Shown here: positions 1-34,762 of the stretch, one piece after another
Layout of the letters: each line of letters begins with the position of its first letter
Numbering within the stretch: the stretch's first letter is position 1
Source: Mycoplasmatota bacterium
Lineage (GTDB): Bacteria > Bacillota_I > Bacilli_A > RF39 > UBA660
Assembly: GCA_012727915.1 (NCBI GenBank)
Contig: JAAYGD010000001.1
Coordinates: 1 to 34,762, forward strand
Reading direction: 5' to 3'
DNA: 34,762 nucleotides
Translations under genes and position numbers: made by a program
The notes under the pieces: generated by a model
What the model saw: the letters and a program-made list of their open reading frames with translations, nothing else
What the model was told of the DNA's origin: nothing
The model's database searches: none

Positions 1-904
1 CTGATTGTGCATCTGTACTTCCACTTATTGTTCCTGATACACTTGCTGCTTTTGTCCATGCTTCACTTACTGTTAATGTTGGTACACTTGGTGCTGTTGT
101 ATCTACTCTATTTGGTGGTGATGTACATGATGTTGTTAATCCAGCATTATTACTTATTAATACACTACATGTGCTTCCATTTGTTGCTCCTGTTACACAT
201 GACCCACCTGCTGTTGATATTCCTGATTGTGTATCCGTACTACTTGCTAATGTAAATGATTGTGTTCCACTTGCTTTCCATGGGCTTATACTTGGTGTCC
301 ACGTTCCACATACTGGTACTGATGTATCTACTCTTGTTACTGATGTTGGACTTGTTGTACTTGATGTTGATAATCCTACATTATTTGTTGCTGTTACATA
401 GTATTGATAACAATTTCCGCTTGCTACTGTTGATGTATATGGGCTTGTTTGTGTTCCTAAACTTGTCCATGCTCCATAAGCTCCACATGTTCCGTTTGTC
501 ATTGTTGCACTTCTTCTATATAATGTATAATTTGCCATTCCTGATTCTGAATCTGTTGCTGAGAACGTTACACTTTGTGTTGTACCTGTTATATATCCAT
601 TTGTATAAGATATTGCTACACTTGTTGGTGCTGTTCTATCTATTCTTACTACTTTTGATGTTGTTGTACTTGATGTTCCTGCTCCATTTATTGCTCTTAC
701 TGTTACTGTTGTTTGTCCTGCATTTGTTACTGTAAATGCTGTTCCTGTTGTCCATCCTAATGTTGTTGCTCCACTCATACTATATTCATATCTTAATATT
801 CCTGATTGTGCATCAACACTTCCATCTATTGTTCCTGATACACTTGCTGCACTTGTCCATGTTTCATTTACTGTTAATGTTGGTACGCTTGGTGCTGATG
901 TATC
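1..904 (-). repeat. Diverged intragenic repeat module B: copies at 641-904 and 1-103 (partial)
   Basis: DTSAPSVPTLTVNETWTSAASVSGTIDGSVDAQS versus DTTAPSVPTLTVSEAWTKAASVSGTISGSTDAQS. Confidence 0.9.
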
Positions 905-2170
905 TACTCTTGTTGTTCCTGCTGGGCTTGTTGAACTATTAGATGTTAATCCAGCATTATTTCTTGCTAACACATAATATTGATAACAATTTCCACTTAC
1001 TACTGTTGATGTATATGGACTTGTTTGTGTTCCTAAACTACTCCATGCTCCATATGTTCCACACATATTATTTGTTAATGTTGCGCTTCTTCTATATACT
1101 GTATAATTTAATATTCCTGATATTGTATCACTTGATGAGAATGTTACACTTTGTGTTGTAACTGTTATATATCCGTTTGTATACGCTATTGTTGGTACTG
1201 CTGGTGCTGTTCTATCATATGTTACTAATCCTCCACTTGTTACATTTGTTTGTTCTAATCCTAAATTATTCCATATATCATAATAATTGCTTACATTTAC
1301 ACTTAATGATCCTTCAGTTAAAGCTGCTTCTGCTGCTGGTATTGTATATGTTGCTACTCTTGTATTTCCACTTCCTGTTACTGTTGCTGTTCTTCCTCCT
1401 ATTGTTACTGTTGGATCTGTTACACTCTTAGTAAATGTTAAATTTAATGTTACTGTATTTCCATTTATTGCGTACTTATTATTTGTTGTATTATTACTTA
1501 TTGCTACTGCTGTTGTTACCATTGGTGGTATTCCGTCATATACTATTACTGTTCTTGTTTCTGTATCTATTGTATCCCCCAAATTACTCTTTAAAACATA
1601 ATTAACTGTATAAGTACCTACTGTATTTATATCTATATCACTTGTTACTGTTACTCTATCTGTAGCCAAATTACCAAACTCATCGACTGCAATAAAACCC
1701 GGTTCTACATATACAGTTGGTTCATATATAGTATTTTGTCTCAAATAAAAAGGATTATCTCCTATTAAAGTAATAGTTGAAAAAACCAATTCACACATAT
1801 TTATATCTTCAAAAACTTGAACATTACCATTAAATTCTTTTAAAGCACAATAATTTTCTTTAAAAAGAGTAAAAGCTACTTGTCCTCTATCGTTTAAAAA
1901 AATAGTTCCAGAATCAGGTAAATCTCCAGTTACTTTGACATCTTCTTCTACAAAATTACCATCCACTATATTTATTATTTTATTTTCATAATCTTTTAAT
2001 ATAGAAGAACTTTCCAGTTTCCTAGCAATAGAATTAGAGGACGCTTCAAAAGCTCTTTCTTTGGAACCATCAATGATATTTAATACATTTGGTATAGCAA
2101 TTGCTAAAATTGTACCTAAAATTATTATTACAGATATTAGCTCTATTAAAGTAAAACCTTTTTTATTCAT
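1..2170 (-). CDS. Large type IV prepilin-like surface protein (>723 aa, 3' end off window): class III signal, pilin domain, DUF5011-like Ig domain, then tandem Thr/Ser-rich Ig-like modules
   Basis: Not in ORF track. Hand translation from ATG at 2170 (SD AAGAGG upstream): MNKKG|FTLIELISVIIILGTILAIAIP..., then ITLIGDNP..YVEPGFIAVD..VGTYTVNY..RTVIV (DUF5011-like). The frame appears open to position 1, with repeated D-x-T/S-x-P...D-x-x-SG...N-x-A/V-G modules. Confidence 0.92.
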   Translation of the reverse strand, partial: MNKKGFTLIELISVIIILGTILAIAIPNVLNIIDGSKERAFEASSNSIARKLESSSILKDYENKIINIVDGNFVEEDVKVTGDLPDSGTIFLNDRGQVAFTLFKENYCALKEFNGNVQVFEDINMCELVFSTITLIGDNPFYLRQNTIYEPTVYVEPGFIAVDEFGNLATDRVTVTSDIDINTVGTYTVNYVLKSNLGDTIDTETRTVIVYDGIPPMVTTAVAISNNTTNNKYAINGNTVTLNLTFTKSVTDPTVTIGGRTATVTGSGNTRVATYTIPAAEAALTEGSLSVNVSNYYDIWNNLGLEQTNVTSGGLVTYDRTAPAVPTIAYTNGYITVTTQSVTFSSSDTISGILNYTVYRRSATLTNNMCGTYGAWSSLGTQTSPYTSTVVSGNCYQYYVLARNNAGLTSNSSTSPAGTTRVDTSAPSVPTLTVNETWTSAASVSGTIDGSVDAQSGILRYEYSMSGATTLGWTTGTAFTVTNAGQTTVTVRAINGAGTSSTTTSKVVRIDRTAPTSVAISYTNGYITGTTQSVTFSATDSESGMANYTLYRRSATMTNGTCGAYGAWTSLGTQTSPYTSTVASGNCYQYYVTATNNVGLSTSSTTSPTSVTRVDTSVPVCGTWTPSISPWKASGTQSFTLASSTDTQSGISTAGGSCVTGATNGSTCSVLISNNAGLTTSCTSPPNRVDTTAPSVPTLTVSEAWTKAASVSGTISGSTDAQS
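329..1216 (-). repeat. Diverged intragenic repeat module A (104 aa): copies at 905-1216 and 329-640
   Basis: Both read DRTAP..I.YTNGYIT.TTQSVTFS..D..SG..NYT.YRRSAT.TN..CG.YGAW.SLGTQTSPYTSTV.SGNCYQYYV.A.NN.GL; offset 576 bp at both ends. Confidence 0.92.
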
Positions 2171-27164: not shown

Positions 27165-27178
27165 ATAAAAGTCTTTTT
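27154..27178. terminator. Bidirectional terminator between tmcAL and the LRR prepilin
   Basis: AAAAAGACT-N7-AGTCTTTTT between convergent stop codons. Confidence 0.7.
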
Positions 27179-28214
27179 ATGATTTCGACCATATACATGT
27201 TTGACACGTTGAAGTATAATTTCCAGCTGCTCTTGAATAAGTTGTTACATAAGAATTATAAAAATTATTTGATATTGAAGTACTTGATACATCTACTAAA
27301 GAAGGCATATTAATATTAACAATTGAATTATTTACAAAAGCCTCTATTCCTATCGAATTAACAGTTGAAGGAATAGAAAGACTAGTTAATTGATTTCCAT
27401 AAAAAGCTCTTTCTTCAATAGACCCTACCCCATTTGAAATAGATAAATTAGTTAATTGATTATTTTCAAATGCTGAAACTCCAATTGTATTTACACTAGT
27501 AGGTATATTAATATTATTAATAATATTTCCACTAAAAGCATATGAAGATATAGTAGTAACACTATTTGGTAATATTATACTTTTTAGAAAATTATTTTGA
27601 AAAGAATTTGAACCAATAGTATTAACTGTATTTGGAATTATTACACTTGTTAGTCCAATATTATCAAATGCAGAAGAACCAATTATCGTTAATGTTTTCC
27701 CTCCTAAAGTACTTGGTATAATTACATTTTTAGAGCAACTTAAATCATATCCAATAACAGTTGCTTCAGTTACTGAACTAGAATAATCAAAACAACTTTC
27801 GTCTACACTTTCTGGAACATTTAAAATACAAATAGAATCTTTTGTAACAGATACCCTCTTTTCATTAAATTCTTTTTTTGCGCACAAAGTACCATTAAAT
27901 AACATAATCGCTACATATCCATTATAAGTAACATAAATAATGCCTTGATCAGGTAAAGTACCATTATAAGGTATTGAATCTCCTACAAATATACCACCTG
28001 AAATAGTATATTTTTTATCTACTGGTACATTAAAAGATAAATCTAATAATCTATCACTAGCAGCTTTAACTAAATTCTCAGCTCCTACTCTAATAGACTC
28101 AATTTGAGAATTTTCTATAACTTTTAAAATTCTCGGAATAGAAATAACTAAAATTATTGCTAACACAACTATAACTGCTAATAATTCAATTAAAGTAAAC
28201 GCTTTTCTATTCAT
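27177..28214 (-). CDS. Type IV prepilin-like protein with C-terminal BspA-type (LRR_5) leucine-rich repeats
   Basis: MNRKA|FTLIELLAVIVVLAIILVISIP; six ~22-aa repeats of the form IG..AF..N.L..I.IP..V.. Confidence 0.92.
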   Translation of the reverse strand: MNRKAFTLIELLAVIVVLAIILVISIPRILKVIENSQIESIRVGAENLVKAASDRLLDLSFNVPVDKKYTISGGIFVGDSIPYNGTLPDQGIIYVTYNGYVAIMLFNGTLCAKKEFNEKRVSVTKDSICILNVPESVDESCFDYSSSVTEATVIGYDLSCSKNVIIPSTLGGKTLTIIGSSAFDNIGLTSVIIPNTVNTIGSNSFQNNFLKSIILPNSVTTISSYAFSGNIINNINIPTSVNTIGVSAFENNQLTNLSISNGVGSIEERAFYGNQLTSLSIPSTVNSIGIEAFVNNSIVNINMPSLVDVSSTSISNNFYNSYVTTYSRAAGNYTSTCQTCIWSKS

Positions 28215-30899: not shown

Positions 30900-31664
30900 T
30901 TAATATAATAATCTAATTATTTCTAGTGCAGTTATATTAAAATAACTTATTATTAATGCTCCAACACACAAATAAGGCCCAAATGGCATCATGTGTTCTT
31001 TATCTTTAAAATAATAATAACAAGATATTGGAAAAGCTATAATAGTACCTAAAAATACTGCTATTAAAGCATTTTCCCACCCAAGGAATAATCCTACTAT
31101 AAGCATTAATTTTATATCTCCCCCACCCATAGTTTCTTTTTTAAATACTAAATCCCCAAAAGACTTTACTAAATATAAAAAAGCAAATGGTATTAAAGCA
31201 TCTAATAATATATCTTTATATATTGAAAATCCATTTATTAAAATCATTGATACAACAAAAAAAGTGAAAAACACAAAGATTATTTCATCTGGAATAATCA
31301 TATATCTTATATCAGATACAATTACGATTACTGAAAAAGAAATAAATAATATAGAAAAAAGTAACTCAATACTTAATCCAAATATTAAATATGATAAAAA
31401 GAATAATAAGCCAGTTAATAGCTCAATTAATGGATAAATAATGCTAACCTCTTTTTTACAATTCTTACATTTACCACCTAAAAATATATATGAAAATAAT
31501 GGTATTAATTCTAGTGAACCTAATTTATGATTACAATTAACACAGTGAGATGCAGGAAAAGCAATAGATTCTTTTTTAGGGACTCTATAACCTACCACAT
31601 TGAAAAAAGATCCCATTATTGTGCCTATTATAAAGAAAAACATTGGATATATATTAGTTAACAT
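30900..31664 (-). CDS. pilD: Type IV prepilin peptidase (PilD/ComC, A24A)
   Basis: GSFFNVV.YR.P, SHCVNC, GKCKNC, YPLIE, SD...IIPD, MGGGDIKL, PFGPYL. Confidence 0.96.
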   Translation of the reverse strand: MLTNIYPMFFFIIGTIMGSFFNVVGYRVPKKESIAFPASHCVNCNHKLGSLELIPLFSYIFLGGKCKNCKKEVSIIYPLIELLTGLLFFLSYLIFGLSIELLFSILFISFSVIVIVSDIRYMIIPDEIIFVFFTFFVVSMILINGFSIYKDILLDALIPFAFLYLVKSFGDLVFKKETMGGGDIKLMLIVGLFLGWENALIAVFLGTIIAFPISCYYYFKDKEHMMPFGPYLCVGALIISYFNITALEIIRLLY

Positions 31665-31676
31665 ATTAATCTCCTA

Positions 31677-33989
31677 TTACATTATTTCTGTATACATATT
31701 AAACATAGGTAATATTACAGACATTAATATTATACCAACTAATACAGTTAAAAACACTATCATTAATGGTTCTATAAAAGTTTTTATTTGAGTAACAGAG
31801 TTTTTATGTTGCAATTGGAAGTAATCAGACACCTTCATCATCATATCTCCAAGTTCTCCAGTTTTTTCTCCTGTAAGCAACATTTCATATGCAATTACTG
31901 GGAAAGCCCAATGATTTTTAAATGCATTAGAAATAATTCCACCTTTAGCCAAATTAGTAATTGTATCAAATATTAACATCTTATATATTTCATTATTTGT
32001 AATCTTACTTAACACTTCCATACTATCTGTTATGAATACATTGTGATTTAATAAAGATCCAAATGTTTTTGTAAATGTAGTTACTTCATTATATATAATA
32101 ATTTTACCAAATACCGCAACATGCATAGTTGCCCATTGTACTATCGTTCTAAATGCCTTTACCGACTTATATAATGCTTTAAATATTAAAAATATAGCAA
32201 ATAATCCCATCAATAAATAAAATATATTTTTTCTCAAGAAATTACTAGTATCAATGATTATCTTTGTAATGGTTGGTAATTCTGCGTCCATTTCTTTATA
32301 TATACCAACAAACTCTGGTATAACAAATATTAATATAAATATTATTACACCAGTTGCAAAAACAAATATTACTAACGGATAAGTCATAGCTGATTTCATT
32401 TGTTTTCTAGTTTTATTCATTTCATCATAGTAAGTAGCCATATCATCTAAAACTTCAGGAAGGTTTCCTGATAACTCGGATGATTTTATCATATTAACTA
32501 ATAATCTTGGAAAAGAATCTCCTTGTTTTTCAAGAGCGCTACTAAAATTTTCTCCCATTGTTAATTCATAATTTAATGATTTATATAAATTTTTATACTT
32601 TCTTTTATCAGTTTGTTTTTCTAATATTTTTATAGCTTCAAGTAAAGGTAATCCAGATTTTAAGAAAGTAGACAATTGTGTTAAGAAGAAAACCAAATCC
32701 GCTCTTTTAATTTTTCCTCTTACTAATTTAGTTAATACATCTTGACCATAATTTCTTTGAGGTGTAATTTCATATACCTCATAACCTTCCGCAAGTAAAT
32801 AAGAGTGAACTTCAAGTTTAGAAAATGCTGGAAAAACTCCTCTTTCAAGTTCCCCTGTTTCTAATTTTTTAGCAACATATGTAAAATATATTTTTTGTTC
32901 ACTACGAACAGCATCTTCTCCTTCAAAATCAATCAAAAGAACTTGTCTTTCCATTTCGGCTTTATTTTCTCTATACCTAACAAATGCAAGATTTTTATAC
33001 CATTTCTTAATCTTTTGTTTTAAAGGAATATTTTTTTCTTCTTTTTGCTTTTCTTTTTGTTCTAATTTTGCTTTTTTAATCTTTATCGCATTTTCTTTTC
33101 TTCTTTTAGATTCAGATTCTTTTGCAGCTTTAAGTTTGGATTCAGTTTCAATTTTTTCAATCAATTGTTTTTCTTTTAATTTCTTTTGTTCAGCTTTAGC
33201 AATAATTTTTTCTTCAGCTTTTTTTCTTTTTTCTTCCTTTTTTTGTAATTTTAATTCTAATTTCTTTTGTTTTTTTGGTTCTAATTCCTGTTTCTTTAAT
33301 TCTTTTAATCTTTTAGCTTCTTCAATTCTTTTAATTTTTTGTTCTTTTTTAAGAATCTTTTCTTGTTCTTTTCTTATTCTATTAACTTCTTTTAATGTTT
33401 CTTTATCAATGTTCTTATTAATAATTTCATTATTACTCTTTTGCTTGTTTCTTTTTTCTAGTTTTCTTTTTTCTCTTAACGCTATTTTATATTCTTTCTT
33501 TCTTTTCTTTTCTTCTATTCTTTGTAATCTTTCTTGTTCTTTTTTTGCTTTACTTGCGTTATTCAAAGCTTTTTTATCTATATCTTTTTTATTATCCGGT
33601 TTTTTTCTTCTTTCTAGTTTCTTTTTTTCTTTTAACGCTATTTTATATTCTTTCTTTCTTTTCTTTTCTTCTATTCTTTGTAATCTTTCTTGTTCTTTTT
33701 TTGCTTTATTTGTAATCTTCAATACTTTATTCTTTTTATTTTCATTTAATATTTTTTTATTTTTATCTTTTTTAAATGGTAATAATATTGTATTTTTTAA
33801 TATTAATTCTAAGCCATAATAAAAATATATAAATGATTTTACTGGGATCATTAATATTTGTCTTAATCCTTCTAAGAAAAAGACTATAATTTTTTTTATT
33901 AATTTAAAAGGAAAAAGAACACTCCTCTTTATAAAAGAAGTATTTTTTTTCAATGGAGACGATAACAAATTGTGTGTCTTTTTTTCCAT
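31677..33989 (-). CDS. pilC: Type IV pilus platform protein PilC (GspF family) with a long charged N-terminal extension
   Basis: C-terminal ~400 aa: QLSTFLKSGLPL, GENFS.AL, SGNL, AMTYP, GEKTGEL, IEP; preceded by ~365 aa of K/E/R-rich sequence. Confidence 0.94.
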   Translation of the reverse strand: MEKKTHNLLSSPLKKNTSFIKRSVLFPFKLIKKIIVFFLEGLRQILMIPVKSFIYFYYGLELILKNTILLPFKKDKNKKILNENKKNKVLKITNKAKKEQERLQRIEEKKRKKEYKIALKEKKKLERRKKPDNKKDIDKKALNNASKAKKEQERLQRIEEKKRKKEYKIALREKRKLEKRNKQKSNNEIINKNIDKETLKEVNRIRKEQEKILKKEQKIKRIEEAKRLKELKKQELEPKKQKKLELKLQKKEEKRKKAEEKIIAKAEQKKLKEKQLIEKIETESKLKAAKESESKRRKENAIKIKKAKLEQKEKQKEEKNIPLKQKIKKWYKNLAFVRYRENKAEMERQVLLIDFEGEDAVRSEQKIYFTYVAKKLETGELERGVFPAFSKLEVHSYLLAEGYEVYEITPQRNYGQDVLTKLVRGKIKRADLVFFLTQLSTFLKSGLPLLEAIKILEKQTDKRKYKNLYKSLNYELTMGENFSSALEKQGDSFPRLLVNMIKSSELSGNLPEVLDDMATYYDEMNKTRKQMKSAMTYPLVIFVFATGVIIFILIFVIPEFVGIYKEMDAELPTITKIIIDTSNFLRKNIFYLLMGLFAIFLIFKALYKSVKAFRTIVQWATMHVAVFGKIIIYNEVTTFTKTFGSLLNHNVFITDSMEVLSKITNNEIYKMLIFDTITNLAKGGIISNAFKNHWAFPVIAYEMLLTGEKTGELGDMMMKVSDYFQLQHKNSVTQIKTFIEPLMIVFLTVLVGIILMSVILPMFNMYTEIM
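33476..33708. repeat. 77-bp perfect direct repeat (33476-33552 and 33632-33708) inside pilC, period 156 bp
   Basis: Both copies encode KAKKEQERLQRIEEKKRKKEYKIAL with identical nucleotides. Confidence 0.95.
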
Positions 33990-34031
33990 TTAGTAACACA
34001 CCTCCATAGCCAACCCCTGTATCTTGATTTT

Positions 34032-34059
34032 ATTATATCACAAAAAGAGATATTTTGAA
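34032..34059 (-). promoter_or_regulatory. Putative promoter of pilC-pilD
   Basis: TGTGATATAAT extended -10 (34042-34032), weak TTCAAA -35. Confidence 0.6.
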
Positions 34060-34083
34060 CATTTATTAATAATTTATAACATG

Positions 34084-34109
34084 AAAAAAGATAGAATAAT
34101 CTATCTTTT
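34084..34109 (-). terminator. Intrinsic terminator after the Cys-rich gene
   Basis: AAAAGATAGA-N4-TCTATCTTTT hairpin with T6 on the minus strand. Confidence 0.8.
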
Positions 34110-34114
34110 AATTA

Positions 34115-34762
34115 TTAATTATATACTACTCTATTTTGACATTGTAATGTGCCTGATGCTGTACAAGCTGTTGTTGTCCAAGATCCAAAACTATTCCATG
34201 TTGCACAACTTCCTTGAGCATATGTTTCGCATCCACAAGTCGCTGCGCGACATGAGTTATATGTTTGACATCCACATCCACTTGTTCTACATGAATTGTA
34301 TCCACAGGCTGATGCATTTGCACATGAATTGTACGATGTACAACTTCCCGTATATGTTCTTTTTATGTATGTACTAATTCCAGTTTGTTTCCATGTAGGT
34401 GTTTGATCACACCCTTTAGCACCTGATTCGCTTCTACATTTTGTTTCACACCTATTTGAAGTTGTAGACCAAGATATGGAACTGGCTCCTTTTAAACAAC
34501 TACAAGTACAAGTATATGCGTTTACGTTACATGTGTTATAAACTTGATTTGGTCCTGCTGACCCTGATGCAGAGCAGCTACTTGGATATGTTTTGCTCTC
34601 AACATAATTTCCCCACCATGCACAACTACATGATGAGTTTGGACATGATGCTGCTCCACATGCTGAATTTGCACAAGATTTATAAGTGGCACACGTACAA
34701 GATGAATTTGGACAGCTCTTGTATTGAGTACATGCTCCATTGTTATATGTTGCACAAGATGC
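34115..34762 (-). CDS. C-terminal 215 aa of a cysteine-rich, probably extracellular protein (5' end off window)
   Basis: Not in ORF track. Open frame ASCATYNNGACTQYKSCPNSSCTC...WNSFGSWTTTACTASGTLQCQNRVVYN* ending TAA 34117-34115; 30 Cys; followed by a terminator. Confidence 0.9.
   Translation of the reverse strand, partial: ASCATYNNGACTQYKSCPNSSCTCATYKSCANSACGAASCPNSSCSCAWWGNYVESKTYPSSCSASGSAGPNQVYNTCNVNAYTCTCSCLKGASSISWSTTSNRCETKCRSESGAKGCDQTPTWKQTGISTYIKRTYTGSCTSYNSCANASACGYNSCRTSGCGCQTYNSCRAATCGCETYAQGSCATWNSFGSWTTTACTASGTLQCQNRVVYN

Follow-up and report, generated by a model that had tools for sequence, protein, structure and literature searches.

The question raised by this locus is what kind of protein ends in 215 residues that hold 30 cysteines in two facing blocks, and what such an ending may be for. 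The window, meaning the whole stretch of 34,762 nt analyzed here, is one entire contig of a Mycoplasmatota bacterium of the RF39 lineage, and the gene runs off its right end, leaving the 3' end (215 aa plus stop; 34115..34762, minus strand) of a large gene. Its neighbors in the window are housekeeping and pil genes. The earlier note had read pilC and pilD beside it, and Pfam matches place both downstream: a pilC-like platform protein (31677..33989, minus strand; PF00482, E 2.5e-53) and a pilD prepilin peptidase (30900..31664, minus strand; PF06750, PF01478). The PilC protein has a long Lys/Glu-rich N-terminal extension of ~350-400 aa, partly repeated, which is also found in the relative L002. 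Between the Cys-rich gene and pilC lies a terminator-like hairpin (34084..34109, minus strand) whose core is identical at the ends of paralogous genes on contigs C49 and C18 of the same genome.

Upstream, the gene can be followed on contig L005, which shares 1,112 identical nt with the window and extends 1,013 nt further, through Ig-like modules and then a 65-aa Ig/PKD-like domain immediately before the Cys-rich part (the pre-stalk domain). L005 is possibly not independent of the window's assembly, but the junction of pre-stalk domain and stalk is backed by contigs of run X4 that span it. The start of the gene is not reached, as stops or a frameshift intervene upstream in L005. At the opposite contig end a paralogous class III pilin-like Ig-repeat gene (2..2170, minus strand) is likewise truncated, and its last 127 nt recur exactly as L005:507-633. 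By its sequence, this identity reads as the signature of a repeat common to the paralogs and collapsed in assembly, and the 5' part of the Cys-rich gene is therefore ambiguous. Read depth in run X4 (34-47 for shared-module contigs versus 10-11 for the stalk) gives a hint only of the same. No contig of the window's genome overlaps the window's right end. A circular contig joining both ends into one gene was rejected, being a solution that would circularise dnaK, lepA, glyS, and serS and that is also contradicted by the different 5' neighbor in L005.

The 30 Cys in 215 aa, divided 10/8/10/2 around a 93-aa center as first described, were reproduced exactly from the translation. By Cys position, an outgoing arm of 10 Cys (Cys3-Cys47; 34622..34756, minus strand) leads into a 93-aa tip with 8 Cys (34343..34621, minus strand), in which a partly conserved collar, resembling the base module in inverted copy, surrounds an inner variable loop (residues ~82-131; 34371..34520, minus strand). 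Gap comparison identifies a returning arm of 10 Cys (Cys141-Cys186; 34205..34342, minus strand) that mirrors the first, and the family consensus a W-rich base with WxxWxxW, two Cys, and a C-x-x-R-x-x-Y end (34118..34204, minus strand). Successive Cys are separated by 7,5,4,1,5,4,4,4,1 residues in the outgoing arm, 15,14,6,1,1,15,3,8,22 across the tip, 5,5,4,4,1,5,4,1,7 in the returning arm, and 13,7 in the base. Facing-gap rules were derived from the other 35 relatives with long arms and applied to this protein; of the 5,040 possible orders of the second arm's gaps, no more than 4 fit the first arm as well as the order actually present, and the mirror in this protein thus exceeds chance. In sequence, the arms share repeat units that read in the same direction and stand in mirrored order; in DNA they are direct repeats (168 nt at 76% in L072, short repeats of 60-85% in the window gene). 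Direct units in mirrored order are what would be expected of antiparallel pairing about local two-fold axes.

A profile search of 1.84 billion representatives matched mostly multi-Ig proteins, and only Cys-rich-tailed members were kept; 73 sequences with the pre-stalk domain gave 72 that were nonredundant, and 64 of these had a Cys-rich tail (8/72 dropped), with 6-72 Cys per tail.

For the whole chain we lean toward the following: the sequence is the C-terminal end of a large protein built of Ig domains, which is likely to be a type IV pilin of the modular kind, and its antiparallel, disulfide-stapled stalk would hold out, at the end of the pilus, a ligand-binding tip that can be exchanged. 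Such a protein would be exported and processed by PilD through a class III signal, as seen in its relatives, and Ig-like spacer domains would lead to a base in which the W-rich C-terminus is predicted to meet the strand running from the pre-stalk domain into the outgoing arm. From there, the mirror code suggests the nested pairs Cys3-186, 11-178, 17-176, 22-171, 24-165, 30-163, 35-158, 40-153, 45-147, and 47-141, each unit pairing with its own copy about a local two-fold axis. Recombination in shared modules, between paralogs or strains, may account for the swaps observed, exchanging tips or whole 3' cassettes and altering stalk length, with selection probably retaining products whose arms are balanced. 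The tip would bind the surface of a partner cell, most likely another microbe.

The variable center proposed in the earlier note is borne out by tips replaced both between strains and between relatives. In a contig of run X3 the window's flanks are retained, one (242 nt) showing 1 difference and the other (257 nt) showing 13, and 147 other bases stand in frame in place of 34371-34520, so that 50 tip codons of the window are exchanged and both arms retained; this swap is known from one contig, aligned at 85% likeness. Among more distant relatives, P0007 and P0019 are 100% identical in the pre-stalk domain, 93% in the base, and 25% in the tip, with arms of 29/30 versus 6/6 Cys, and P0004 and P0019 are 61% identical in the tip and 50% in the pre-stalk domain. 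The pilC upstream DNA (window ~34016-34110, 4 differences) is preceded in runs X7 and X8 by a different gene end, reading TCYQ-stop like that of the C18 ladder described below; a sister species is a possible source of these contigs. Loose contig ends past the first pre-stalk codons, 22-30 letters each, read like three other cassette types, and behind the stop of the C18 gene, ahead of the shared terminator, lies a remnant of a W-rich-type gene end. In L002:3-812 an Ig module is joined, at a short shared motif, directly to the returning arm, the outgoing arm and tip being gone, a junction that by its sequence is a deletion or a misassembly. No adjacent recombinase was found among the 34 scanned window ORFs, with the upstream side covered for ~1 kb, and the four PF00589 genes of the genome all lie on other contigs. 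Downstream of the gene, where the terminator-like hairpin and pilC lie, there are no inverted repeats. A search of the genome, 93.8% complete, gave no PF00078 match that would point to a diversity-generating retroelement, and the variation seen is block replacement. With no adjacent recombinase or reverse transcriptase seen, tips and cassettes are likely exchanged by homologous recombination between the modules that the genes share.

Turnover of tips between strains and paralogs would be equally expected if diversifying selection drove it, that is, if the same fold-back stalk carried a tip that varies to evade phages, predators, or host recognition, as a decoy or shield, rather than to pick a partner. 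Some tips are indeed tiny, such as that of P0015 with 7 residues between Cys. Against this, many tips are 60-130 aa long with Cys of their own and are reused across scaffolds, and the analogous modular pilins, PilV, and TraN bind through their variable ends according to the accessible parts of the papers cited below. We regard the decoy as unlikely, though it is the alternative that fares best.

Returning to the stapled, tip-presenting stalk, the structure prediction proposed as a check upheld the arms in a relative and not in the window's own protein. In the AlphaFold model of L008 (36-row alignment) both arms have pLDDT 91-97 with periodic strand-turn elements and the tip 49-52. In the extended model of the window protein (48 rows) pLDDT is 98 for residues 1-70 and 93-98 for residues 261-284, with arms and tip at 42-67. 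With a cut-off of E<=0.001, Foldseek matched neither model (PDB; viral set), leads from the ESM Atlas all stayed under 0.9, and a wide structural search covering residues 1-64 of the window model matched only the Ig-like pre-stalk domain (Ig/PKD-like fold; Z 6.2, rmsd 1.9, 63 aligned). The base may resemble the Trp-Arg ladder of thrombospondin type 1 and WSXWS proteins, in which a WxxWxxW strand packs against an RxR strand; motifs of this kind are present in the base, and no Pfam TSP match was found among 20 members. The fold-back stalk, considered by itself, we hold to be very likely.

Whether the staples are disulfides or metal had been left open in the earlier note. Nested Zn-Cys4 sites occur in the zinc region of DnaJ, and in the arms CxxxxC mirrors CxxxxC. 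Metal would suit an anaerobe, and the near-identical DNA among the matches listed, from 20 runs in 9 studies, comes from digesters, bioreactors, landfill, and wastewater, together with terrestrial samples (RNA datasets are absent from the listed holders). Moreover, searches of the genome (93.8% complete) for the DsbA, DsbB, and VKOR families found none. The Cys counts speak against metal, as multiples of four are not favored (28 tails at 0 mod 4 and 33 at 2, the picture being the same when the terminal Cys pair is left out), and His makes up 1.1%; on these two grounds disulfides are favored over Zn. Three-Cys units with gaps 4,6,6 are also added per arm, and the genome encodes a candidate oxidase (C23:4175-5338, plus strand; L090:1176-2339) with a signal peptide, a thioredoxin-like CPHC domain, a multi-pass membrane domain, and two further Cys. 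This protein, which matches no family above cut-off, is a candidate extracytoplasmic disulfide catalyst judged by its domain layout; it occurs in 39/57 family genomes at E<=1e-10, and its co-occurrence with the stalk is weak (20/27 versus 14/30 genomes at E<1e-50, hand-counted, p=0.058). Metal staples are accordingly disfavored, and we consider them improbable.

The disulfide ladder makes a prediction for the whole family, namely that the two arms change together, as had been anticipated in the claim of in-step expansion. After removal of 4/64 tails without a definable tip, arm Cys counts co-vary with r=0.91 (n=60), and with r=0.89 in the 36 largest, those with at least 12 arm Cys that were used for the register tests. 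The Cys count is even in 61/64 tails versus 48% in random cuts; odd counts occur in 3/64 tails and in 3/11 hand-cut arrays. The tip center lies near the middle, mean arm asymmetry being 0.15 versus 0.47 for a random center (0 of 20,000 draws as low), and tip length is unrelated to arm size (rho 0.09). When Cys are paired from the outside inwards, the facing gaps follow a code of 4-4 (92), 5-1 (57), 4-3 (31), 7-7 (27), and 1-5 (24), with 4-6/6-6/6-4 and 4-8 as well. Facing gaps carry 1.36 bits of information in the antiparallel register, versus 0.24-0.35 in parallel and 0.29-0.82 when slid, and swapping arms between proteins lowers this to a mean of 0.28 bits (maximum 0.44 in 2,000 swaps), a result unchanged when the outer five rungs are skipped. 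The register is thus specific to each protein and not an inherited family pattern; the relatives are kin, so p-values overstate, and the swap control retains that relatedness. Rung by rung, the code is kept in P0003 (23/23 Cys) and P0007 (29/30 Cys).

These controls bear on the more ordinary explanation that tandem Cys repeats form sequential local domains flanking an insert, the mirror being a by-product of duplication. It is in keeping with the direct DNA repeats noted above and with a few unbalanced members: P0011 (27 versus 35, its returning arm having about six extra gaps), P0130 (12 versus 3), P0121 (2 versus 15), and L014 (5 versus 11), the uneven arms of several small members being partly artefacts of the boundary rule. 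Duplication alone does not give a palindromic unit order, and the match is informative in the antiparallel register, not the parallel one, and is protein-specific, leaving sequential domains very improbable. Other scaffolds carry the same ladder too, among them Sec-exported proteins and glycine-rich domains. One such glycine-rich domain, a homolog of the window genome's ALK/LTK-type domain, precedes the Cys array in P0002 and P0017, and the array is followed by a short Gly-containing tail, an arrangement that, at the level of domain order, fits a closed-loop insert.

The case for a pilus comes from the N-termini of the relatives and not from gene position. The export signal called for in the earlier note is present as a class III pilin signal in 35/50 relatives, and the window gene would share it; among the others 6/50 have another hydrophobic N-terminus (one a mis-started class III) and 9/50 are fragment-like. 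PF07963/TIGR02532 matches occur in relatives, and the class III signal is also found in the paralog at 2..2170, which shares the upstream module. The proposed link through the pilC-pilD position did not stand, a stalk gene lying beside pilC in 1/33 other loci. Type IV pilus machinery is encoded in the genome, with PilC, PilD, and two PF00437 PilB-type ATPases over cut-off, and manual reading of 20 pattern hits gave 16 class III genes. One pilin-like class III gene in the window (27177-28214, minus strand) carries BspA-type leucine-rich repeats. Modular type IV pilins are marked by extra C-terminal modules, here the Ig-like domains and Cys stalk, and the assignment fits, subject to the gene's own N-terminus. 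That the stalk is real and the window gene a non-pilus, Sec-exported or defective copy, as its unseen start, the broken frame upstream in L005, and the Sec-type N-termini of five relatives might suggest, is the least probable account, given an upstream module base-for-base common to the class III gene in the window and the class III signals of all four closest full-length relatives (P0003, P0004, P0007, and P0157).

The window genome (0.87 Mb, 25% GC, 93.8% complete) holds further members of the group. A giant class III pilin, L044 (C18:24468-28190, minus strand), has the same pre-stalk domain and a ladder of CNPYS and CYDT repeats. Two more stalk paralogs lie at C49:1-507 (plus strand; L004), whose tip resembles that of P0003, and C41:29412-33860 (plus strand); the other end of C49 carries a truncated class III gene with a module in common with the window's left-end gene. 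A 730-aa membrane-anchored protein with 43 Cys (C26:9715-11904, plus strand) has CPxGY-type units on both sides of its center and, from that layout, is possibly another nested hairpin. The large Cys-rich proteins encoded at C2:4292-7813 and C57:1-2883 look exported and are related to each other, their C-terminal halves diverging.

In the window's order, 299 of 300 sampled genomes belong to one family. A protein search found the stalk family in 16/299 genomes of that family, and larger counts came from the pre-stalk profile (40/400, a profile that also catches some plain Ig-like proteins) and the base profile (17/400); none of 382 scored genomes of other families in the phylum had the stalk family. 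The absence of a named family was upheld, the stalk having no Pfam or NCBIfam match and no PDB sequence relative. In the literature searched, mostly open-access, there was no account of the stalk family, though the modular-pilin list of PMC8179133 could include members. RF39 is described as genome-reduced and auxotrophic in the available text of PMC12306168, and the part of the RF39 genomics paper PMC7301438 that was accessible contains no word starting "pil". In Saccharibacteria, type IV pili mediate host binding, according to the section seen of PMC11623550. A more ambitious reading extends the present one to an antibody-like pilus repertoire across these uncultured, genome-reduced Bacilli, in which paralogous pilins would end in a self-complementary disulfide ladder whose context-free mirror code serves as length ruler and recombination scaffold, and knobs would be swapped within species to choose host or partner cells; we put this forward tentatively, as possible and somewhat doubtful.

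The architecture is unnamed, and its pairing code predicts every disulfide from the sequence, which makes it directly testable. It would offer a natural scaffold to display small Cys-rich binders at set distances, a handle on partner attachment in a widespread uncultured lineage with reduced genomes, and tips that could act as baits for the hosts needed in cultivation.

The following comparisons rest on the portions of each cited paper that were available. The modular type IV pilins PilB and PilC of S. sanguinis (PMC8179133) have an N-terminal class III signal, as do relatives of the window gene, and resemble it in their large C-terminal modules and in a proposed tip location and adhesive role. 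Their effector is a vWA or lectin domain, whereas the effector here is a nested Cys ladder that has no name, numbers 6-72 Cys, and bears a variable tip; several paralogs per genome trade modules. The PilV shufflon adhesins of the IncI plasmids TP114 and R64 (PMC9045228) are minor pilins in which the N-terminal part stays constant and the choice of partner is set by C-terminal cassettes that can be exchanged, a plan probably shared by the present protein. PilV has clustered invertible cassettes, sfx sites, and an adjacent Rci, none of which was seen here on the visible side; instead the paralogs are dispersed over the chromosome, and exchange also takes place within the stalk, where the inner tip alone is replaced.

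TraN (PMC9246713) resembles the present protein as a Cys-rich fold-back protein, predicted to be fully disulfide-bonded, whose variable tip sets the receptor. It is an outer-membrane conjugation protein, in contrast to the pilin signal found in relatives here, and its repeat units differ; the region has no Pfam match to TraN, and the neighbors described above form no conjugation locus. The bovine ultralong CDR H3 (PMC10523490, PMC7498065) shares an Ig-like domain, an antiparallel stalk, and a small, variable Cys-rich knob. In the pilin-like protein, however, the stalk is itself repeat-built, variable in length, and predicted to be Cys-stapled, and no somatic diversification is implied; Foldseek rows for cow Fabs were not significant (E 3.6-8.8), and the likeness to an antibody knob is one of analogy only. 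What the present analysis adds is the mixed-unit mirror code, tested against controls, and the exchange of tips and cassettes at the level of strains.
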